Shown one piece after another: positions 1,336 through 50,318 of a stretch of 64,000 nt of DNA. This DNA is from Phage NC-G. Within the stretch, counting starts at the first letter, position 1, and each line of letters opens with the position of its first letter. The stretch lies in the sequence record MK310184, one strand, 5' to 3'. The translations under genes were made by a program, and so were the position numbers. Under the pieces are notes generated by a model, which was given only the letters and a program-made list of their open reading frames with translations, was not told the DNA's origin and searched no databases.

Positions 1336-1635
1336 TTAGAAAGAACCAGAGCCTTTAATTGTGTTCTGGCGACCTTTATTTTCTAATTCAGAGTGGTCGA
1401 TTTCGTATGCTTGGGCTACACCAAAGGCCTTTTTAACTTTAGCTAAAGAGCCTTTAGACGTAACAATATTAAAAGTATTACCTTTGGTAAAATCAACCAA
1501 ATCCACTTGTACACCCTGTTTGCCGAGGCTTGCTACAATAGCATCAACATATTGTTGGTCTAAGGTGCCTTGGACCCCAATTTGGAATGCTTTAGGAGCT
1601 TTGGCTTCTGTGATAAATTCTTGATAAGTTTTCAT
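1336..1635 (-). CDS. Internal-protein-like capsid-targeted protein, 99 aa
   Basis: N-terminus MKTYQEFITEA matches the T4 IP capsid-targeting sequence; paralogue of the ORF at 15267..15578 (shared FGVA and RQNTI segments). Confidence 0.6.
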   Translation of the reverse strand: MKTYQEFITEAKAPKAFQIGVQGTLDQQYVDAIVASLGKQGVQVDLVDFTKGNTFNIVTSKGSLAKVKKAFGVAQAYEIDHSELENKGRQNTIKGSGSF

Positions 1636-1677
1636 ATTATTCCTTAAGTTGATAGAAGTATTCTATCACGGATTTAA

Positions 1678-2094
1678 TTAAGCGTAAATAGCCTTGCCAT
1701 AATGTTTGTACCAGGTAGGACGCTGTGCAATTTTTTCGTCCAAACGAGCTTGTGAAATGGCGATGGAAGCTTCGTGTGGAGTATAATCACCACGGAATTC
1801 CTGAGGAATATCACTAATGTCCTGGACCGTAGTATCCTTGATATTAAAACCACGTTTTAAACATTCGGCTATAAGCTCGATTTGACGTTTACGTAAAAAT
1901 TCAAGCTTATCATAAAAGAAAGTAACATGGCCTGTACCAAGGATAAAAGTAGAGCTAATTTTAAAATCACGAACACGTTTACCATTAGCAACATGCTTAC
2001 GAACTGCGCCGAAAACACGTGGTAATTCGCGATATTCAGCCATTAAGTGTTGGTCGGCCAATTCAGATACTAAGGTAAGGTTGATACGAGTCAT
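1678..2094 (-). CDS. denV: Endonuclease V (pyrimidine-dimer DNA glycosylase)
   Basis: Translation from [44 protein letters not shown] is near-identical to T4 endonuclease V as I recall it; start set at the internal Met to give the catalytic Thr2 N-terminus. Confidence 0.9.
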
Positions 2095-2485: not shown

Positions 2486-3082
2486 TTAATTACCACGGGC
2501 TGCATTAGCAACGGCGTAAGCGTACTGAATATTAGCATCTTTAAACATACCTTTAGAGGTATCTATTTCCGCCTTAAAGCCACCTTTAGTCATAACATCG
2601 GCAAATTCTTTACGGAAAGCCATTGCATCAAGACCTTTCCATGCGGATTTGTGCTTGGCAAATTCAAGTCCGGCGAAGTTAACTGCTTTAGCTAATTTAT
2701 TATCAATAGTCCATTTACCTGCTTTAGGTACAAATACCGGACCTTTCTGTTTAGAGAACAGTTTTAAATTCCAGCGACGAAGGTCACCGTCAGCTTTAAC
2801 AAAAGCTGCGTCCAAGTTACTAGCAACAACATCTTGGATATGGGCAAATTTAAGCCCATCAGCTTCAATATTTAGGTCGTTACGCCAGCGAAGTCCTTCC
2901 CAAGCGAAAGCTTTAAAGTCGGAAGCTTTTGTAGCCAAGTACCGTTCAATAGGAGCTGTTTTAGCGTCAAAACCATTTCCTGGGCGGTCAACGCCGTTTC
3001 CTCGGTAAGTCCACTCATCTTTATTAATACCGCTGACCTTTCCTACAGAAGCTTCGGCGATAAATTCTTTATACGTTTTCAT
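2486..3082 (-). CDS. ipIII: Internal protein III-like, 198 aa
   Basis: MKTYKEFIAEA leader; size and position next to e match T4 ipIII. Confidence 0.6.
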   Translation of the reverse strand: MKTYKEFIAEASVGKVSGINKDEWTYRGNGVDRPGNGFDAKTAPIERYLATKASDFKAFAWEGLRWRNDLNIEADGLKFAHIQDVVASNLDAAFVKADGDLRRWNLKLFSKQKGPVFVPKAGKWTIDNKLAKAVNFAGLEFAKHKSAWKGLDAMAFRKEFADVMTKGGFKAEIDTSKGMFKDANIQYAYAVANAARGN

Positions 3083-3124: not shown

Positions 3125-3165
3125 TAACTGTAGATATACTATCACAATTCTAGGAGATGTAAACT
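3125..3165 (-). promoter_or_regulatory. Early promoter-like element upstream of the ipIII-like gene
   Basis: Minus strand reads GTTTACA, 16 nt, TGATAGTAT. Confidence 0.4.
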
Positions 3166-3563
3166 TATTTGTAGGTTTTCATCCAATTCTTGAACAAAGC
3201 CGCGACGTCTTTCTCTTTAACGTTCAGTTTAACGTCCAACATTTTACCACCCGCTGCTCTCGTTTGGCGAATCTTAGCAGTACCGGTTTCGCCATTCCAC
3301 TCAACATAATACTGTCCAGTGTTCATTGCAATACCATCGCCATAGTCTTCATTTTTAGAAGTGGTGAATGCCAGCTTCATAGTCTTAGATACACGAGCCT
3401 GCATGCCTGACTGAAGGGCATTACGAACGCGAATAACCTGAGGAGTGGCCTGGGTTAGGTTCTCATTCAGTTCTTCAGTGAACTCTTCAGATTCAAACAT
3501 CGCCAAAAGTTCTTTAGATGCAGGAATTACATTCTCTGCGATAAATTCATTATAAGTTTTCAT
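3165..3563 (-). CDS. Additional internal-protein-like capsid-targeted protein, 132 aa
   Basis: [11 protein letters not shown] leader; sits between e and the ipIII-like gene, where T4 has no gene. Confidence 0.55.
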
Positions 3564-12044: not shown

Positions 12045-12662
12045 CTATTTACGGGTCTTTTCGAACTGTGCTGCGTCACCTGCAAGGCGGCCCGCTTGGC
12101 GAAGTTTGTTATTGATTTCTTCGCGCATAGGCTGGGTATACTTAAGGCCTTCAACCGTCAGATAGAGGCGATAAAGGTCCGGGGTATCCAGGTTGTTAAT
12201 GTGTTGACCATTACGAAGAGCGTTGAATTCACGAACAAGGTGTTTAGTTTCAGATTCGATTTCCGAAACCAAAGAAGCCAGCTGGTTATATTTTTTAACT
12301 ATAGTGCTGGTGTCAAACTTGATTTTAGGTTTAGGAGCTTCTTTTACAGGCTCTGCTTTAGGTGTCGGTTTCGGTGCTGCAACTTTGGTCTGAGCCGCGG
12401 GTTTAGAAACAGGAGCTTTGGCTGGTTTAGCAGGCTTAGTAGCGCCACCGGCTACGATATCTTTAAAAGCTTTGGAAGCTTTGTAATATTCTTTCTGGTT
12501 ACTAGTATCAAAACCATACATATCATAGACGTTTTTAAAGAATTCGGTAGTGGTTTTAGTCCCAGAAATTTTATCATAAGCCGCTTGCCACATATCTTTA
12601 GTCATGCGAACGCCGGCTTCACTCAGAACGCTTTCGTTCAAAAATTCATTGTAAGTTTTCAT
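12045..12662 (-). CDS. Internal-protein-like capsid-targeted protein with a Pro/Ala/Lys-rich linker, 205 aa
   Basis: MKTYNEFLNES leader; KPAKPAKAPVSKPAAQTKVAAPKPTPKAEPVKEAPKPK low-complexity segment; late-promoter motif upstream. Confidence 0.6.
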   Translation of the reverse strand: MKTYNEFLNESVLSEAGVRMTKDMWQAAYDKISGTKTTTEFFKNVYDMYGFDTSNQKEYYKASKAFKDIVAGGATKPAKPAKAPVSKPAAQTKVAAPKPTPKAEPVKEAPKPKIKFDTSTIVKKYNQLASLVSEIESETKHLVREFNALRNGQHINNLDTPDLYRLYLTVEGLKYTQPMREEINNKLRQAGRLAGDAAQFEKTRK

Positions 12663-12690: not shown

Positions 12691-12698
12691 TATTTATA
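12691..12698 (-). promoter_or_regulatory. T4 late-promoter motif TATAAATA
   Basis: Exact TATAAATA on the minus strand about 30 nt upstream of the 12662 start codon. Confidence 0.5.
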
Positions 12699-13663: not shown

Positions 13664-13739
13664 TTGGTCGAGACAGTAGGGATCGAACCTACGACCCAGG
13701 ACTTAGAAGGTCCTTGCTCTTCCTTCTGAGCTATGCCTC
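13664..13739 (-). tRNA. tRNA-Arg (anticodon TCT)
   Basis: Hand-folded cloverleaf: acceptor CGAGGCA/TGTCTCG, D-stem GCTC/GAGC, anticodon stem AGGAC/GTCCT with loop CTTCTAA, T-arm GTAGG-TTCGATC-CCTAC, encoded CCA. Confidence 0.8.
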
Positions 13740-13743
13740 GTAT

Positions 13744-13818
13744 TTGGCGGACGTGCATGGATTCGAACCATGGACCAATTGATTAACAGTCAACTGCTCT
13801 ACCACTGAGCTACACATC
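13744..13818 (-). tRNA. tRNA-Asn (anticodon GTT)
   Basis: Hand-folded cloverleaf: acceptor GGATGTG/CACGTCC, D-arm GCTC-AGTGGTA-GAGC, anticodon loop CTGTTAA, T-arm CATGG-TTCGAAT-CCATG, encoded CCA. Confidence 0.8.
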
Positions 13819-13822
13819 CAAA

Positions 13823-13896
13823 TTGGTGACCCTGGGTGGAATCGAACCACCATCCAGCGATTATGAGTCGCTCGCTTGACCGTCCAGCTACAGGGC
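13823..13896 (-). tRNA. tRNA with CAT anticodon (Met, or Ile if lysidine-modified)
   Basis: Hand-folded cloverleaf: acceptor GGCCCTG/CAGGGTC, anticodon stem AGCGA/TCGCT with loop CTCATAA, T-arm GGTGG-TTCGATT-CCACC, encoded CCA; D-stem slightly imperfect. Confidence 0.7.
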
Positions 13897-13973
13897 CAAT
13901 TCTATTATGAAAGGTTCTTTGAGGGAAGAACCTTTGGTAATAGAGGGTACTTATTAATAATAACACATAACTC

Positions 13974-14264
13974 TTAAAGCATATTAATGTATGTGCTTTT
14001 AATACAATTAAGATTCAAAGGATTTTTAAAAATATCATAATCCTCTGGACCTGTTTCAGTTTCAATAAAGAAATCAAAATTCACCGTATTGAATTTACGG
14101 TCTTCAAAAACCAATTTAACATTGGAATGGCTACGACCTATTTCAACACTTTCAACTTCAAAACACGTTAAGATGCCATAATCGTCAATCAATTGCTTTG
14201 CGGCATCTTGGTCTGATTTATACCCGTTATTAGCCTTGTCACCTATAGATGCGTAAAGAATCAT
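13974..14264 (-). CDS. Hypothetical protein, 96 aa
   Basis: ORF in the track. Confidence 0.4.
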   Translation of the reverse strand: MILYASIGDKANNGYKSDQDAAKQLIDDYGILTCFEVESVEIGRSHSNVKLVFEDRKFNTVNFDFFIETETGPEDYDIFKNPLNLNCIKSTYINML

Positions 14265-14668
14265 GCTTGACCCTCGTCTACAATAGTATGGGTGATGGCA
14301 TTAACAATCTGCCACCAGTCAAAACGATCAGAACCGTAACGAGGCTTTTTCTCATTTTCGTTAATAATATCACGTAGTTCGTCTTCAGAAAATGCTTTAG
14401 CGATTAAATCGGTATAGCCGCCACGTGGATAATAATTATCACCTGCAAACAAAAGGAAATTTACCTTTCCGGAAGGAATATACGCTTCCTTAGGATATTT
14501 GTTTCCTGCATGGTCTACCACTTCAATATAACGGTAAGGAATATCAGTACTTTCAACCCATTGCCAAGCCGCGGCAGGGGATTCAAAAGCATCAACACCT
14601 AAACGGTTATCTTCATCTTTAGACGGGTTATTTTCATAATCCGCATATACATAATATTCAACGTTCAT
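14261..14668 (-). CDS. Hypothetical protein, 135 aa
   Basis: ORF in the track with 4-nt overlaps to both neighbours. Confidence 0.45.
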   Translation of the reverse strand: MNVEYYVYADYENNPSKDEDNRLGVDAFESPAAAWQWVESTDIPYRYIEVVDHAGNKYPKEAYIPSGKVNFLLFAGDNYYPRGGYTDLIAKAFSEDELRDIINENEKKPRYGSDRFDWWQIVNAITHTIVDEGQA

Positions 14669-14853
14669 TATTCACCTTTAGAGATTTTATCCATAACAAA
14701 AGAGATTGAACCAATTAAAAATGCCACTACTAAAGAGATTATATTCTCGGAAGTTGAAAGCATATCGAGCATGAATCCTGCAAACATACTAAAGCCAAAA
14801 GCGGTAACAGCGGCCAGTGCAGTAACATTTCTAATTAATTCGCAACGTTTCAT
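14668..14853 (-). CDS. Hypothetical small membrane protein, 61 aa
   Basis: Start at MKRCEL with GAGGAGAAT Shine-Dalgarno; single hydrophobic helix; promoter cassette upstream. Confidence 0.4.
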   Translation of the reverse strand: MKRCELIRNVTALAAVTAFGFSMFAGFMLDMLSTSENIISLVVAFLIGSISFVMDKISKGE

Positions 14854-14874: not shown

Positions 14875-14915
14875 TAGGGCTATAGTATCACCACTAGAGC
14901 CCGTTGTACACAATT
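14875..14915 (-). promoter_or_regulatory. Early promoter plus stem-loop cassette (PeSL-like)
   Basis: Minus strand GTGTACAacGGGCTCTAGtggTGATACTATAGCCCTATCAAC. Confidence 0.5.
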
Positions 14916-15187
14916 TATTTCAAATAAATTGCATATTTTTTATAGCCAGCTGTCTCGTGGCGCAACCCTTTGTCATTAGCAAAGCGTTCAATATTATTAA
15001 TTTGATTTTGGTCGAGTTCTGAAATATCAAATACAAAAAAGTTTCGCTTATTGCCTAAAGTTACATGATTAGTCAAATCGATGTTATAGAGATGATTTAT
15101 ATTATCAATCATGGCCTTAACAGATTTGTTGATTTTTACTTCTTCATTAAGAATGGATTCAGCGATAAATTCTTGATAAGTTTTCAT
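14915..15187 (-). CDS. Internal-protein-like capsid-targeted protein, 90 aa
   Basis: Start at MKTYQEFIAESI; the track ORF extends upstream into the promoter leader. Confidence 0.55.
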   Translation of the reverse strand: MKTYQEFIAESILNEEVKINKSVKAMIDNINHLYNIDLTNHVTLGNKRNFFVFDISELDQNQINNIERFANDKGLRHETAGYKKYAIYLK

Positions 15188-15214
15188 TTTGATTTCCATT
15201 TGGATGTTTTGTTT

Positions 15215-15255
15215 TGATAGGGTAATAATATCACTACCCCATCTAAAAGTAAACA
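15215..15255 (-). promoter_or_regulatory. Early promoter plus stem-loop cassette (PeSL-like)
   Basis: Minus strand GTTTACTtttagatGGGGTAgTGATATTATTACCCTATCAAAACAAAAC; this leader plus the first codons are duplicated at 15547..15607. Confidence 0.5.
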
Positions 15256-15266
15256 CGGTTTATAAA

Positions 15267-15578
15267 CTATTTTATTCCACGTGATGCAATTGTGTTCTGT
15301 CGTTTAACACCGGTTTGTTTAAAGTCGTGATTGTCGATTTGATCGGTGCGAGCAACTCCGAATGATGATTTGATCTTAGCTTTAGATCCTTTAGTTATAG
15401 AAATAAACATCTCGGAAGCCCCTTTCTTAAAGTCTGAAGCGATTACTTCAACGCCGTTCTTAGCAAGTGACTTCAGAATTGCATCCGCATACTCATCGTC
15501 AAGACCAGCCAGAGTATTAATAATGAATGTCTTTGGTGCAACAGAAGCTTCGGAGATAAATTCTTGATAAGTTTTCAT
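15267..15578 (-). CDS. Internal-protein-like capsid-targeted protein, 103 aa (position of T4 ipI)
   Basis: MKTYQEFISEA leader; paralogue of the 1336..1635 ORF; sits immediately upstream of 57B as ipI does in T4. Confidence 0.6.
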   Translation of the reverse strand: MKTYQEFISEASVAPKTFIINTLAGLDDEYADAILKSLAKNGVEVIASDFKKGASEMFISITKGSKAKIKSSFGVARTDQIDNHDFKQTGVKRQNTIASRGIK

Positions 15579-15604
15579 TTTGATTTCCATTTGGATGTTT
15601 TGTT

Positions 15605-15648
15605 TTGATAAGACTACTATAACATAGCCCTATAACATTGTAAACTGG
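15605..15648 (-). promoter_or_regulatory. Early promoter cassette (PeSL-like)
   Basis: Minus strand GTTTACAatgttatagggctaTGTTATAGTAGTCTTATCAAAACAAAAC. Confidence 0.45.
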
Positions 15649-15657
15649 TTTGTGAAA

Positions 15658-16350
<693 letters not shown>

Positions 16351-16358
<8 letters not shown>

Positions 16359-17112
16359 TTTTATTTCCTAATAATTTATCAATAGTGGTGTATAGTTCAG
16401 AAAGAGTGCCGTTATTTTCGACAACAACGTCACCAGGTAAAATTGGTAGACCCGCTTCAGTGATGTGCGAGTCTTGTACTTGACCGGTTTCAGCGCGAAC
16501 TACATGAATAATCGTAGCACCCATCGCTCTGAGCGAATCAATTTCGTGTGTTTGACGAACATCAGGTACGACATAGTATTTCGCATCAGAATATATTCTA
16601 TCAAAATAGTCTAAAGCGAACAACTTAACCCAATACATCTTATCAAATTGGTTAACAATAATATCGGTCCCAAGGGTCTGCATGAGGCGACGTACTGACC
16701 AATTGTTATTTTTATTTATTACTTCAAATAGCTGGTCTTTTGTTTCTTCAGACAAATACTGGACTGGGGTAAGACCATAATGATACGCGGTACGAACATC
16801 AATTCCTGGAATAGGAAGGATATTATTCAGCTTAACAATAGCATGTTCAAAGATATCAATAACATCATACGATTTTAAAGGAAGGGCTTCTTCACGGTCA
16901 TAACCGATGCCTTCAAAACAATTAAAATCCAATTTAGGCATATAGCTACGATCTAATACAGGGTCATCAGATATGTATTCATAAGCTTCTGCCAGATACT
17001 TTTTAATAGGACCAGCGAGTTGAAATTTTACGGAATCCATATTTTCAATTACATAGTTAGCAACGGTGTCCTTACCGCTACGTTTGATTCCTACAATTGA
17101 TATTAGTTTCAT
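16351..17112 (-). CDS. 1: Deoxynucleoside monophosphate kinase gp1
   Basis: P-loop GIKRSGKDT near the N-terminus; size and position match T4 gp1. Confidence 0.9.
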
Positions 17113-45128: not shown

Positions 45129-45556
45129 TGTTCCTTATCCCTGATGATTACGAATTAACTCTAGAAAGCGTAGAGGCCAAAATTCCAGAAGCACAGGGAC
45201 GTTTTGCTACTCTTTCTGAAGCCCTCGAGAAAAGCGATATAAATAATCTTGTAGAGAACATGATTGCTGATGGCGATATTGATACAGCTATTGCCATCGC
45301 CTCTTTGAATGAAAATATGGCTCTTAACGAATTTATCGTTAAGCACGTTTCTTCTAAAGGTGAGCTTACTCGTACTAAAGATATTAAAACCCGTCAACGC
45401 AACGCTTATCAAACGACCGGGTTGTCTAAAGCAAAACGCCGTCAGATTGCTCGCAAAGCATCTAAAACCAAACGTGCTAACCCGTCTATTCAAGTACGCG
45501 CCGAACGTAAGCGTAAGAAAGCTCGTTCTAAACGTAAAGCCTTTGGACTTAACTAA
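45128..45556 (+). CDS. 68: Prohead core protein gp68
   Basis: 142 aa, as T4 gp68. Confidence 0.8.
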
Positions 45557-46191
45557 TGAAACCTGAATTGCTCATCGAACATTGGGGACAACCAGGTGAA
45601 ATTATCGATGGGGTTCCAATGTTGGAATCTCATGATGGAAAAGATTCTGGACTTGCCCCAGGCCTTTATATAGAAGGCATATTCATGCAAGCCGAAGTGG
45701 TTAACCGTAATAAACGTCTTTATCCAAAACCTATTTTGGAAAAAGCTGTTGCTGATTATATGGCAGAACAGGTTGCTACTAAACAAGCTTTAGGAGAATT
45801 AAATCATCCGCCTCGTGCTAACGTCGACCCTATGCAAGCCGCTATTATTATTGAAGATATGTGGTGGAAAGGTAATGACGTTTATGGACGTGCTCGTATT
45901 ATTGAAGGCGACCATGGTCCTGGTGATAAACTAGCTGCTAATATTAGAGCCGGTTGGGTACCTGGTGTTAGTTCTCGTGGTCTAGGTTCTTTAACTGAAA
46001 CCAATAAAGGATATAAGCGCGTAAACGAAGGTTATAAATTAACCGTCGGTGTTGATGCAGTATGGGGTCCATCTGCTCCTGATGCTTATGTAACTCCTAA
46101 ACAAATTACAGAATCACAAACGGTAGATACCGATACCAGTGCCGATGACGCCTTTATGGCTCTCGCAGAGGCCATGAAAAAAGCGTTATAA
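45556..46191 (+). CDS. 21: Prohead core protease gp21
   Basis: 211 aa at the T4 gene 21 position. Confidence 0.9.
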   Translation: MKPELLIEHWGQPGEIIDGVPMLESHDGKDSGLAPGLYIEGIFMQAEVVNRNKRLYPKPILEKAVADYMAEQVATKQALGELNHPPRANVDPMQAAIIIEDMWWKGNDVYGRARIIEGDHGPGDKLAANIRAGWVPGVSSRGLGSLTETNKGYKRVNEGYKLTVGVDAVWGPSAPDAYVTPKQITESQTVDTDTSADDAFMALAEAMKKAL

Positions 46192-46221: not shown

Positions 46222-47037
46222 ATGCTTAAAGAACAACTGATCGCTGAAGCACAGAATATTGATGCTTCCGTTGCTCTTGACAGTATTTTCGAATCAGTTA
46301 ATATTTCTCCGGAAGCAAAAGAAACTTTCGGCACTGTATTCGAAGCTACCGTCAAGCAACACGCCGTTAAACTGGCTGAATCTCATATCGCTAAAATCGC
46401 TGAAAAAGCGGAAGAAGAAGTTGAGAAAAATAAAGAAGAAGCTGAAGAAAAAGCTGATAAGAAAATCCAAGAAGCTGCTGGTCGTTTCCTTGACCACGTT
46501 GCTAAAGAATGGATGGCTGAAAACCAGCTGGCTGTTGATAAAGGTATTAAAGCCGAACTGTTCGAATCCATGTTGATGGGTATGAAAGAACTGTTTGTTG
46601 AACACAATGTGGTTGTTCCAGAAGAAGCAGTAGACGTTGTTGCTGAAATGGAAGAAGAACTCCAAGAGCAGAAAGATGAAACCGCTCGTCTGTTCGAAGA
46701 AGTTGGTAAGCGCGATGCGTATATTAATTACGTACAGCGTGAAGTTGCGTTGACTGAAGCAACTAAAGACCTGACCGAATCTCAAAAAGAAAAAGTTAGT
46801 TCTCTGGTAGAAGGCATGGATTATTCCGATGCATTTGGTAAAAAAATTGGCGCTATCGTTGAAATGGTTAAAGGCCAGACTGACGTTGAAAAACCAATCA
46901 CCGAAGCCGCTATAAATAAAACTGAAGACGATGCTGCAGCACTGAATTATATTTCGGAAGCAGTTGAAGAAAAAGGCACTAAGCCTACCCTGTCCTTCGC
47001 GGACCTGTCTGCAATCGCAGCATCTCGAATTTCTTAA
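46222..47037 (+). CDS. 22: Prohead core scaffold protein gp22
   Basis: 271 aa, highly acidic coiled coil, at the T4 gene 22 position. Confidence 0.9.
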   Translation: MLKEQLIAEAQNIDASVALDSIFESVNISPEAKETFGTVFEATVKQHAVKLAESHIAKIAEKAEEEVEKNKEEAEEKADKKIQEAAGRFLDHVAKEWMAENQLAVDKGIKAELFESMLMGMKELFVEHNVVVPEEAVDVVAEMEEELQEQKDETARLFEEVGKRDAYINYVQREVALTEATKDLTESQKEKVSSLVEGMDYSDAFGKKIGAIVEMVKGQTDVEKPITEAAINKTEDDAAALNYISEAVEEKGTKPTLSFADLSAIAASRIS

Positions 47038-47058: not shown

Positions 47059-48618
47059 ATGAAAAAGAATGCATTAGTTCAAAAATGGTCCGCTCTGCTG
47101 GAAAACGAAGCTCTTCCTGAAATCGTTGGTGCTTCTAAACAAGCTATCATCGCTAAAATTTTCGAAAACCAGGAACAAGACATCCTGACTGCTCCGGAAT
47201 ACCGTGACGAAAAAATCTCTGAAGCATTTGGTTCTTTCCTGACCGAAGCTGAAATCGGTGGTGACCACGGTTATGATGCTACCAATATCGCTGCTGGCCA
47301 GACCTCTGGTGCAGTAACTCAGATTGGGCCGGCAGTAATGGGTATGGTTCGTCGTGCTATTCCTCATCTGATTGCTTTTGATATTTGTGGTGTCCAGCCT
47401 CTGAATAACCCTACCGGTCAGGTATTTGCACTGCGTGCAGTATATGGTAAAGACCCTATCGCTGCAGGCGCTAAAGAAGCTTTCCATCCGATGTATGCTC
47501 CGAACGCTATGTTCTCTGGTCAGGGTGCTGCTGAAACTTTCGAAGCACTGGCTGCAAGCAAAGTTCTGGAAGTTGGTAAAATTTATTCTCACTTCTTCGA
47601 AGCTACCGGTTCTGCACACTTCCAGGCTGTTGAAGCTGTAACCGTTGATGCAGGCGCTACTGATGCCGCTAAACTGGATGCTGCTGTTACCGCTCTGGTT
47701 GAAGCTGGTCAGCTGGCTGAAATCGCTGAAGGTATGGCTACTTCTATCGCCGAACTTCAGGAAGGTTTCAACGGTTCTACCGATAACCCGTGGAACGAAA
47801 TGGGCTTCCGCATCGACAAACAAGTTATCGAAGCTAAATCTCGTCAGCTGAAAGCAAGCTACTCTATCGAACTGGCACAGGACCTTCGTGCAGTACACGG
47901 TATGGATGCAGATGCTGAACTGTCCGGTATCCTTGCTACCGAAATTATGCTCGAAATCAACCGTGAAGTTATCGATTGGATTAACTACTCTGCACAGGTT
48001 GGTAAATCTGGTATGACCAACACCGTTGGCGCTAAAGCTGGTGTGTTTGACTTCCAGGACCCGATTGATATCCGTGGTGCTCGTTGGGCCGGTGAGAGCT
48101 TTAAAGCCCTTCTGTTCCAGATTGATAAAGAAGCAGCCGAAATCGCTCGTCAGACCGGTCGTGGTGCTGGTAACTTCATCATCGCTTCCCGTAACGTAGT
48201 TAACGTACTGGCTGCAGTTGATACTTCTGTAAGTTATGCAGCTCAAGGTCTGGGTCAGGGTTTCAACGTTGACACAACCAAAGCAGTATTTGCCGGTGTT
48301 CTTGGTGGTAAATATCGTGTTTACATCGACCAGTATGCTCGTTCCGATTACTTCACCATCGGTTATAAAGGTTCCAACGAAATGGACGCAGGTATCTACT
48401 ATGCTCCGTACGTTGCACTGACTCCGCTGCGTGGTTCCGATCCGAAGAACTTCCAACCGGTAATGGGCTTCAAAACTCGTTACGGTATCGGTATTAACCC
48501 GTTCGCTGACCCAGCTGCTCAGGCGCCTACCAAACGTATTCAGAATGGTATGCCTGACATCGTTAACAGCCTCGGTCTGAATGGTTACTTCCGTCGCGTA
48601 TATGTTAAAGGTATCTAA
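47059..48618 (+). CDS. 23: Major capsid protein gp23
   Basis: 519 aa; N-terminal propeptide ending LTEAEIGGDHGY at a gp21-type LxE cleavage context. Confidence 0.95.
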   Translation: MKKNALVQKWSALLENEALPEIVGASKQAIIAKIFENQEQDILTAPEYRDEKISEAFGSFLTEAEIGGDHGYDATNIAAGQTSGAVTQIGPAVMGMVRRAIPHLIAFDICGVQPLNNPTGQVFALRAVYGKDPIAAGAKEAFHPMYAPNAMFSGQGAAETFEALAASKVLEVGKIYSHFFEATGSAHFQAVEAVTVDAGATDAAKLDAAVTALVEAGQLAEIAEGMATSIAELQEGFNGSTDNPWNEMGFRIDKQVIEAKSRQLKASYSIELAQDLRAVHGMDADAELSGILATEIMLEINREVIDWINYSAQVGKSGMTNTVGAKAGVFDFQDPIDIRGARWAGESFKALLFQIDKEAAEIARQTGRGAGNFIIASRNVVNVLAAVDTSVSYAAQGLGQGFNVDTTKAVFAGVLGGKYRVYIDQYARSDYFTIGYKGSNEMDAGIYYAPYVALTPLRGSDPKNFQPVMGFKTRYGIGINPFADPAAQAPTKRIQNGMPDIVNSLGLNGYFRRVYVKGI

Positions 48619-48666: not shown

Positions 48667-48933
48667 CTATGCAATCTTAACACGACGGTTGATGATATCA
48701 CGGAAGTCAATACGATTTTCTTGGATTTTCAGCCAGTTACCAGATTTGTCTTTGGTATGGGTAGAGTATTCACCGTTCCACCAGAAGTCGGTAGCATAAG
48801 CCATGGCTTCGTATTTCTTAACTAGTGCATTCACTGCATTACCGTTAGGATTGGAACCATATTTTTCTACCAGGGCTTTGATGTCTTTATCAAGAGCGGA
48901 AAGAGTAGTACGAATAAAGTTTAACTTGTTCAT
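48667..48933 (-). CDS. Hypothetical small protein, 88 aa, in the position occupied by segD in T4
   Basis: Start at MNKLNF with GAGGAGATT Shine-Dalgarno; driven by its own promoter cassette; no GIY-YIG motif. Confidence 0.5.
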   Translation of the reverse strand: MNKLNFIRTTLSALDKDIKALVEKYGSNPNGNAVNALVKKYEAMAYATDFWWNGEYSTHTKDKSGNWLKIQENRIDFRDIINRRVKIA

Positions 48934-48944
48934 TTTTAATCTCC

Positions 48945-48995
48945 TCATGTTTTGATAGGTCTATAGTAACATGTGATAACCTTGCTGTAAACAAC
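48945..48995 (-). promoter_or_regulatory. Early promoter cassette (PeSL-like) between genes 23 and 24
   Basis: Minus strand GTTTACAgcaaggttatcacaTGTTACTATAGACCTATCAAAACATG, same leader as the cassettes near the tRNA cluster. Confidence 0.5.
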
Positions 48996-49034: not shown

Positions 49035-50318
49035 ATGGCAAAGATTAACGAATTACTGCGCGAGTCAACAACTACTTCTAGCAACTCATTGGGTCGCCCT
49101 AATCTTGTTGCTTTGACCCGTGCTACAACCAAATTGATTTACCGTGATATTATTGCTGAACAACGTACTAGCCAGCCTATTGCTGCATTGTATGGTGTCA
49201 AATATCTTACTCCTGATAATGAATTTAGCTTCCAAACTGGTGCCGTTTATGGTGGTGAAGTTGGTTCTAAAGACCGTGAAACTATCCCGGAACTCACAGA
49301 TAAGGCCCAGGCTATTGCCAAGGGTGAATATTTCAAGTATCAGAACATAGTTTATAAGGCTCTTCAAGCAAGCCCACTCGCATCCACTAGCGCTACAGAA
49401 TTGACTGATGCCCTTCAAGAAGGTTTGGTGTCATTAACATGTCGTCTGGTTCCTGATGCGGCTCACACAGAGAAATTCGAAGCAGGTGATGTTGAAATTA
49501 GTAATGCAGTATTCCAGGTTAATAAATGGAACGCACCTGTTAAGTCTCGTAAACTTAAAACCGCTTTGACTGTAGAACTAGCCCAAGACATGGAATCCAA
49601 TGGCTTCGACGCCCCTGCGTTCTTAGAAGACCTTTTAGCCACTGTAATGGCTGATGAAATCAATAAAGACGTACTACAATCCTTGATTACCGTATCCAAA
49701 CGCTATAAAGTTACTGGTGTATCTGATAATGGTATTATTGATTTGACTTATGATAGTGCTCCGGAATCTGCACGTAAACTTTATGAAATTGTTTGTGAGA
49801 TGAATTCTGAAATCCAGAAAACTACTTCTTATTCTGGTACGTTTGTTGTGGCTTCAAGTCGTGTAGCTGCAATGCTTGCGGGTTCAGGCTGGTTAAAACA
49901 TAAACCTGAAGATAATAATTGGCTCCCAGAAACTGCCTATGGTTATTTGTTGAATGGATTACCTCTGTTCTGTGACGTTAACAGCCCGTTGGATTATGTT
50001 ATCGTCGGTGTTAAAGAGAACTATGGTGGTAATGAAGTTGTCGGTTCTATTTTCTATGCCCCGTACACAGAAGGCCTGGATTTAGACGACCAAGAACACG
50101 TTGGTGCTTATAAGGTTATTGTCGACCCGGATTCATTACAGCCTTCTATTTCTCTGATGGTTCGTTATGCACTGTCCGCTAACCCGTACACCGTAGCTAA
50201 AGACGATAAAGAAGCTCGTGTTATAGATGCAACCAATATGGATTTAATGGCTGGACAGAGTAATATGTCTTATCTGCTTGGTGTTAAACTTCCAGCAATT
50301 ATTTACGAGGCTGATTAA
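49035..50318 (+). CDS. 24: Capsid vertex protein gp24
   Basis: 427 aa; MAKINELLRESTTT... is near-identical to the T4 gp24 N-terminus. Confidence 0.95.
   Translation: MAKINELLRESTTTSSNSLGRPNLVALTRATTKLIYRDIIAEQRTSQPIAALYGVKYLTPDNEFSFQTGAVYGGEVGSKDRETIPELTDKAQAIAKGEYFKYQNIVYKALQASPLASTSATELTDALQEGLVSLTCRLVPDAAHTEKFEAGDVEISNAVFQVNKWNAPVKSRKLKTALTVELAQDMESNGFDAPAFLEDLLATVMADEINKDVLQSLITVSKRYKVTGVSDNGIIDLTYDSAPESARKLYEIVCEMNSEIQKTTSYSGTFVVASSRVAAMLAGSGWLKHKPEDNNWLPETAYGYLLNGLPLFCDVNSPLDYVIVGVKENYGGNEVVGSIFYAPYTEGLDLDDQEHVGAYKVIVDPDSLQPSISLMVRYALSANPYTVAKDDKEARVIDATNMDLMAGQSNMSYLLGVKLPAIIYEAD

Follow-up and report, generated by a model that had tools for sequence, protein, structure and literature searches.

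T4-like phages carry internal proteins (IPs), cargo that is injected ahead of the phage's own gene expression. In T4, IPI, IPII and IPIII are small, basic and non-essential proteins encoded at two loci, and each begins with a 10-residue targeting peptide (CTS) that carries an L/I-x-E site for gp21. In IPIII the first 10 residues suffice for head incorporation; residues 4 and 7 serve targeting, residues 8 and 10 serve processing, and gp21 cleaves after L/I-x-E (PMC9026906). About 1000 IP molecules are embedded in the packaged T4 DNA, where their lysines contact DNA phosphates (PMC3012670, Rao and Black). Ip1, Ip2 and Ip3 of T4 each block a distinct GmrSD type IV nuclease and confer no cross-protection (PMC12373910). 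For all three T4 proteins, then, the function has proved to be specific inhibition of a type IV restriction nuclease of the host.

The GenBank record of phage RB15 contains the note that its ipI locus is bounded by 57B and tRNA.4. It was in this phage that Ip7 and Ip9 were reportedly named in 1994 (Repoila). Between the two boundary genes RB15 has four cassettes, Ip5-Ip9-Ip7-Ip8; the DNA described here has Ip7 and Ip9 families with the same CTS in the same interval, but only these two cassettes, in the order Ip7-Ip9. The Ip7 genes of the two phages are 92.6% identical in DNA, their Ip9 proteins are 79% identical, and the spacer that follows Ip7 is 96% identical, although it runs into Ip8 in RB15 and into Ip9 here. 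Dhakavirus MX01 (NC_031934) has a similar genome backbone and likewise combines Ip9 with both Ip7 subtypes, the one gene lying downstream of denV and the other at ipI; it differs in the order at ipI (Ip9-Ip7), in its leaders and in its ipI Ip7 (90% amino acid identity). A further described arrangement is the PeSL (Arbiol et al. 2010, PMC2839356; Comeau et al. 2014, PMC4122927), in which a stem-loop, an early promoter, a Shine-Dalgarno element and a start codon lie between genes, beside swapped small genes of hyperplastic regions. PeSL promoters in T4-group phages have the consensus TTTACW-N17-TAYWAT, and the PeSL authors themselves tied these elements to the IP-locus observations of 1994 (PMC4122927).

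The DNA analysed here is a stretch of 64,000 nucleotides from Phage NC-G (record MK310184), hereafter the window. Judged by its closest matches, it represents a Dhakavirus-like genome of a T4-type myovirus: its first 20 kb are closest to Dhakavirus JS10 (93% identity over 87% of the query), and the best matches of the 1.6 kb round the two ORFs of interest are MX01, WG01 and QL01 (89-94%). We consider it highly probable that these ORFs form a polymorphic ipI locus with two independent, exchangeable IP cassettes, for which packaging through the CTS, injection and a role against host defence would follow by extension from T4.

The ipI locus and its two internal-protein genes

The genes of the ipI region lie on the minus strand and are given in the direction of transcription, followed by other genes of the window to which the text refers.

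16351..17112, minus strand: gp1 (dNMP kinase)
16113..16358, minus strand: 57A
15658..16113, minus strand: 57B, as annotated in MX01 and WG01, upstream boundary of the ipI locus; Pfam PF23474 Acb1, E 7e-59
15267..15578, minus strand: Ip7-type gene, ORF of 103 aa; phrog_2667
14915..15187, minus strand: Ip9-type gene, ORF of 90 aa; phrog_7673
14668..14853, minus strand: trna.4, 61-aa small membrane protein, downstream boundary of ipI; phrog_1692
14261..14668, minus strand: trna.3
13974..14264, minus strand: trna.2
13665..13897, minus strand: tRNA-Met, tRNA-Asn and tRNA-Arg
45556..46191, plus strand: gp21 prohead protease; Pfam Peptidase_S77, E 1e-103
46222..47037: gp22 scaffold (T4_CASP); PF25623
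3550..4044: e, which lies between the two IP loci, as do the tRNA genes at 13665..13897

An earlier note on this DNA had placed two capsid-targeted genes at the ipI position. Both ORFs are present on the minus strand, both start with MKTYQEFI, and their sequences agree with capsid-targeted IP genes. The pair is enclosed by 57B and trna.4 and lies immediately upstream of the tRNA cluster, that is, in the ipI hyperplastic locus and within the same boundaries as in the RB15 record. A Pfam search with the trna.4 protein returned no family.

The 103 residues encoded by 15267..15578 comprise the CTS MKTYQEFISE and a basic mature part of 93 residues (pI 9.6). This protein matches the whole profile of phrog_2667 ('internal head protein'; E 4e-41), is homologous over its full length to the named Ip7 proteins of RB15, T2 and CC31, and shares 91% of its residues with RB15 Ip7 and 95% with a Mosigvirus protein. 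In a large collection of assemblies, no contig was found to encode this exact Ip7 protein. The 90 residues encoded by 14915..15187 comprise the CTS MKTYQEFIAE and a mature part of 80 residues (pI 8.0); they match phrog_7673 (E 1e-56), are homologous over the full length to the named Ip9 proteins of RB15, VR5 and IME08, and are 98.9% identical to VR5 'ip9'. By tblastn, 283 phage records contain an Ip7-family gene and 173 an Ip9 gene; many of these genes are annotated as ip7, ip9 or 'internal head protein', and in MX01 and WG01 both are annotated at the ipI position. By this homology, Ip7 and Ip9 of the window are orthologues of already described, named genes and nothing new in kind.

The targeting peptides conform to the T4 pattern. 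Aromatic residues stand at positions 4 and 7 of both (Y4 and F7), as in IPIII, and the gp21 motif occupies residues 8-10 as I-S-E in Ip7 and I-A-E in Ip9, with gp21 and gp22 encoded in the same genome. Each of the window's seven CTS proteins has Y4, F7, E10 and I or L at position 8, with [LI]xE ending at residue 10 and a basic mature part (pI 8.0 to 9.7). At the DNA level, the motif ATGAAAACNTATMAAGAATTTATC occurs six times in the window and not once in 100 shuffles.

Similarity between the Ip9 and Ip7 proteins is limited to the targeting peptide (first 11 residues), and no alignment was left once it had been removed. Pfam searches with Ip7, Ip9 and the related protein encoded at 1336..1635 gave no family, and a PDB sequence search with Ip7 and Ip9 gave only chance-level matches. 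In these profile and PDB searches the mature parts thus differ from T4 IPs in matching their own PHROG families only, with no solved structure. Structure models of Ip7 and Ip9 gave small alpha/beta domains of a generic kind that matched no particular structural relative, and they are therefore uninformative on the target of either protein.

Four codons ahead of the assigned start, each leader has a further ATG in frame (15579..15590 and 15188..15199, minus strand), which would give MEIK-MKTYQEF, and ORF callers may extend Ip7 and Ip9 to it. We rejected this ATG (15590 for Ip7; MEIKMKTYQ...) as the start because the CTS must be N-terminal and because orthologues with other leaders lack it. In other phages, trna.4 and cassettes from further families also have a MEIKMK-like prefix.

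The Ip7 paralogue at the second internal-protein locus

1336..1635, minus strand: second Ip7-family gene, 99 aa, subtype of the e/ipIII/denV locus, downstream of denV; phrog_2667, E 2e-42

The same note had called the gene at 15267..15578 a paralogue of this one, on the strength of shared FGVA and RQNTI segments, and had reserved the possibility that the similarity would prove confined to the targeting leader. The two proteins align over their full length with 50% identity (E 2e-28), the FGVA and RQNTI segments included, and with the first 10 residues removed the alignment persists at 47% identity (E 4e-22). Since it survives removal of the CTS, the paralogy stands. The two IP loci also flank e and the tRNA genes as had been described.

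How old the duplication is can be judged from the DNA. The two genes are 57% identical overall and 53% identical once the first 33 nt are left out; conservation is confined to the CTS-coding part (30 of 32 nt), and their upstream regions have the promoter layout and the CTS in common and nothing else. In a neighbour-joining tree of 17 Ip7-family members, from which the second LYE-01 copy was left out, the family divides into two deep clades, each confined to one locus. The clade of the ipI locus, between 57B and trna.4, includes RB15, MX01, WG01, CC31, PG7, ESCO47, LYE-01 and the window among others, and that of the e/ipIII/ipII/denV locus includes the window, MX01 and the Klebsiella phages JD18 and phi1_146055. 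The protein encoded at 1336 is 96-100% identical to Dhakavirus and Gaprivervirus proteins at the same place. The second Ip7-family gene of LYE-01 likewise lies at the e/ipIII/denV locus, directly after ipIII, and its product is 67% identical to the 1336 protein.

These data bear on whether one copy was recently derived from the other inside this genome by way of the shared leader, 15267 from 1336 or the reverse. Full-length protein homology agrees with such an event, as does the rarity of two family members in one phage: among the 283 records only MX01 and LYE-01 have both Ip7 subtypes, which makes the window the third such genome. A recent copy would nevertheless have to be reconciled with 53% DNA identity outside the first 33 nt, with two deep clades that are each tied to their own locus, with orthologues of each copy at the same locus elsewhere (95-100% amino acid identity) and with upstream regions alike in promoter layout and CTS only. 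We rejected recent duplication between the loci on the DNA divergence and the locus-specific clades, and regard it as extremely improbable. The same divergence, the locus-tied clades and the same-locus orthologues indicate that duplication or transfer between the loci was ancient, and the homologue at 1336 is, on this comparison, an old sister lineage belonging to the other IP locus and not a recent copy. Of the duplication and shuffling of IP genes between loci that the earlier note had read from these genes, the shuffling holds; recent or ongoing exchange between the loci does not, and the interpretation is better put as an ancient split together with continuing cassette exchange inside ipI, as the sequences suggest.

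Leader repeats, promoters and exchange of cassettes

15555..15610, minus strand: Ip7 leader, with a 32-nt 5' UTR, a GGAAAT Shine-Dalgarno-like element and 8 codons
15164..15219, minus strand: Ip9 leader, exact copy of 15555..15610
15616..15644, minus strand: early-type promoter-like site of Ip7, TTTACA-17-TATAGT, TG extension
15225..15253, minus strand: early-type promoter-like site of Ip9, TTTACT-17-TATTAT, TG extension
1649..1688: promoter/stem-loop element of the 1336 gene
14877..14902: similar promoter/stem-loop near trna.4

Near-identical leaders and first codons had been reported for the two genes. The likeness is real, but one of the intervals given for it (15547..15607) was displaced by 9 nt: the true partner of 15165..15225 is 15556..15616. 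Over 56 nt the identity is exact (15164..15219 and 15555..15610), covering 32 nt of 5' UTR and the first 8 codons, and this run is part of a 117-nt direct repeat with 79% identity and an offset of 391 nt. The Ip7 cassette is thereby bracketed by two 56-nt direct repeats, 391 nt apart. In its last ~20 nt the Ip7 leader of the window is unlike the orthologous Ip7 leader of ESCO47 and identical to the window's own Ip9 leader. The 56-nt repeats could plausibly serve as a substrate for homologous recombination by which Ip7 would be deleted, inserted or replaced. In ESCO47 the Ip9 and Ip8 leaders (2819..2892 and 3166..3235 of the ESCO47 locus) are mutually identical over ~55 nt, so exact leader repeats within a genome recur in other phages.

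Each promoter-like site is associated with a stem-loop. At Ip9, a 12-bp stem-loop (15216..15243) overlaps the -10 element and has a predicted fold of -16.1 kcal/mol (z -3.4); at Ip7, an imperfect stem-loop at ~15608..15633 overlaps the -10 element with a weak fold of -10.2 kcal/mol (z -1.9). All three IP genes examined for this layout (Ip7, Ip9 and 1336) have TTTAC, then TATAGT, TATTAT or TAGAAT with a TG extension, a stem-loop over the -10 and then YTATCAA. The window has four copies of the pattern TTTAC-N28-40-YTATCAA where 0.8 would be expected, three of them at these three genes; a general promoter scan of the window showed no enrichment over shuffles. The fourth copy (48952..48991, minus strand) lies between gp23 (47059..48618, plus strand) and gp24 (49035..50318, plus strand) and is followed by an oppositely oriented ORF of 93 aa (48667..48948, minus strand), which looks like a small early gene inserted in the late structural block.

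Between the genes, the combination of stem-loop (weak at Ip7), sigma-70-like early promoter, Shine-Dalgarno element and start codon is that of a PeSL; the layout at the IP genes fits the PeSL concept, and the promoters agree with the TTTACW-N17-TAYWAT consensus. It differs in two ways. The stem-loop, which the published figure legend places just upstream of the promoter, overlaps the -10 here, and the repeat extends into the CTS, so that protein-coding DNA forms part of the homology.

Variation at the locus was surveyed by classifying every ORF between 57B and trna.4 in 36 57B-anchored loci from IMG/VR and in MX01, WG01, RB15 and ESCO47. Across 41 loci the number of cassettes in the interval ranges from 0 to 5; seven CTS-bearing families that recur account for most of them, and several other families are confined to a single locus. 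The order Ip9-Ip7 occurs in five loci (MX01, WG01, RB15 and two others) and the order Ip7-Ip9 in three (the window, ESCO47 and phiE142). QL01, VR5 and vB_EcoM_005, which are the nearest Dhakavirus/Gaprivervirus genomes, have Ip8-Ip9 at ipI, and the window has Ip7 in the place of Ip8. Along the locus, the nearest relative changes from segment to segment:

57B segment: nearest WG01 / QL01, 97% DNA identity
57B-Ip7 spacer: nearest ESCO47, 89% DNA identity
Ip7 coding sequence: nearest ESCO47 / RB15, 96.5% / 92.6% DNA identity
Ip7-Ip9 spacer: nearest ESCO47 / RB15, 97% / 96% DNA identity
Ip9 coding sequence: nearest VR5, 97.8% DNA identity
trna.4: nearest vB_EcoM_005, 98% DNA identity

In alignment, RB15 and ESCO47 track the window between the end of Ip7 and the next start codon, across the whole spacer. 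Past the CTS codons RB15 continues into Ip8 and the window into a VR5-type Ip9 body. This switch of homology at the CTS indicates that the cassette joins lie in leader/CTS DNA. The visible shuffling consists in the exchange and permutation of cassettes within ipI from phage to phage, the joins falling in leader/CTS DNA that the cassettes share, and the window illustrates such permutation cleanly. In an ungapped comparison of few, related genomes, 5' UTRs of different families in one genome had a mean identity of 58%, against 52% for the same family across genomes. A further mosaic boundary is seen at trna.2 (13974..14264, minus strand), which is 92.7% identical to VR5, whereas its identity to the nearest relatives of trna.3, trna.4 and 57B is only ~78%.

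Identical leaders might also reflect nothing more than purifying selection on promoter, ribosome-binding site and targeting peptide, with no part in recombination, while the locus varied by illegitimate insertions and deletions. The CTS residues are indeed functionally constrained (PMC9026906), their codons are the common A/T-ending ones, and T4-type early promoters have a consensus in common. Constraint of this kind leaves unaccounted for an identity of 56 out of 56 nt that takes in UTR positions differing in the orthologous ESCO47 Ip7 leader, the switch at the CTS between homologies to different donor phages, and the occurrence of the same body behind different leaders and of the same leader before different bodies. 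We therefore judge selection as the sole cause to be improbable, and favour a leader that also acts as the joining place for cassettes.

As to expression, the canonical late promoter TATAAATA was found upstream of neither Ip7 nor Ip9, so the sequence does not explain how the proteins would be supplied at prohead assembly. This absence would agree with one or both ORFs being relics in decay, with expression or packaging already lost, as would a fused Ip7::Ip9 remnant in phage OLB35. Decay is, however, hard to square with two intact frames and complete CTS motifs, with 95-99% amino acid identity to orthologues across genera, and with a promoter-like site and a Shine-Dalgarno-like element for each gene, and we give it almost no credence. 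The OLB35 'ip7 protein' (77 aa) joins Ip7 residues ~29-73 to Ip9 residues ~59-90 and has no CTS; it looks like the product of a deletion that fused neighbouring Ip7 and Ip9 genes, which implies the order Ip7-Ip9 in OLB35.

Possible roles of Ip7 and Ip9, and further CTS-bearing genes

Taken as a functional unit, a cassette consists of an early-type promoter with its -10 in a stem-loop, a conserved 5' UTR, the DNA for a 10-residue CTS (MKTYQEFIxE) and an otherwise unrelated small basic protein body, the leader/CTS DNA being the part at which, by comparison between phages, cassettes are joined. On the T4 model, the CTS would take the protein into the prohead scaffolding core, where gp21 would cut after Glu10 at I-x-E; the mature proteins of 93 and 80 residues would stay with the packaged DNA and be injected with it. 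By analogy with T4 Ip1, Ip2 and Ip3, the likeliest task of the injected Ip7 and Ip9 would be to inactivate a particular host nuclease or another defence. In T4 the three proteins enter the host by injection and inhibit different GmrSD type IV nucleases (PMC12373910). A literature search found no virion proteomics or functional results on Ip7 or Ip9, the names themselves returning only unrelated uses of the strings.

The neighbourhood points the same way. 57B is labelled 'RNA ligase' in RefSeq relatives, yet its Pfam match is Acb1 (anti-CBASS; E 7e-59), and with 57B assigned to that family the ipI cassette array directly follows a known anti-defence gene. Given the inhibition of GmrSD by T4 Ip1-3 and the Acb1 gene next door, anti-defence is our best guess for the role of Ip7 and Ip9.

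Alternatively, Ip7 and Ip9 may be mainly basic DNA-associated head proteins that neutralise charge or aid packaging and ejection, and not specific inhibitors of defence. Mature pI values of 9.6 and 8.0 are in keeping with this, and T4 IPs are embedded in the packaged DNA with lysine-phosphate contacts (PMC3012670). Such a role would leave unexplained the rapid turnover, the presence and absence of cassettes and the many unrelated families at one slot; moreover, three of three T4 IPs now have specific GmrSD targets (PMC12373910), and the locus adjoins Acb1. As a main function we hold it to be unlikely, and a generic DNA-associated role and an anti-defence role are not mutually exclusive.

Two further ideas are offered tentatively. 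The C-terminal tail of the Ip7 paralogues (G..RQNTI..G) is conserved and predicted to be disordered, and the core is predicted to be ferredoxin-like. It is conceivable, though doubtful, that the two paralogues inhibit two variants of one host defence, for example distinct GmrSD-type nucleases, with the tail as the shared contact and the ferredoxin-like core conferring specificity; separately, and with the same reserve, the 56-nt repeats could allow Ip7 to be actively excised and inserted as a cassette in populations of today.

Ip7 (283 phages) and Ip9 (173) are widespread, and loci of this kind amount to a ready-made list of anti-defence candidates. The ipI-type loci also bear on host-range prediction for therapeutic phages.

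Two further ORFs of the window carry a CTS or a CTS-like start. That at 3165..3563 (minus strand, 132 aa) lies between e and ipIII, with its start overlapping the 3' end of e by 14 nt, and opens with a complete CTS whose residues 8-10 are I-A-E. Its family is phrog_15461 ('unknown function') and its MX01 orthologue is annotated as hypothetical; it looks like an unrecognised IP. The ORF at 12045..12662 (minus strand, 205 aa; phrog_2280, 'unknown function') starts with the CTS-like MKTYNEFLNE, in which L-N-E ends at residue 10, and its mature part has a pI of 9.7. A perfect T4 late-promoter motif, TATAAATA, stands at 12691..12698 (minus strand), 29 nt upstream of this ORF, which would be a seventh capsid-targeted candidate, located outside both classical IP loci.
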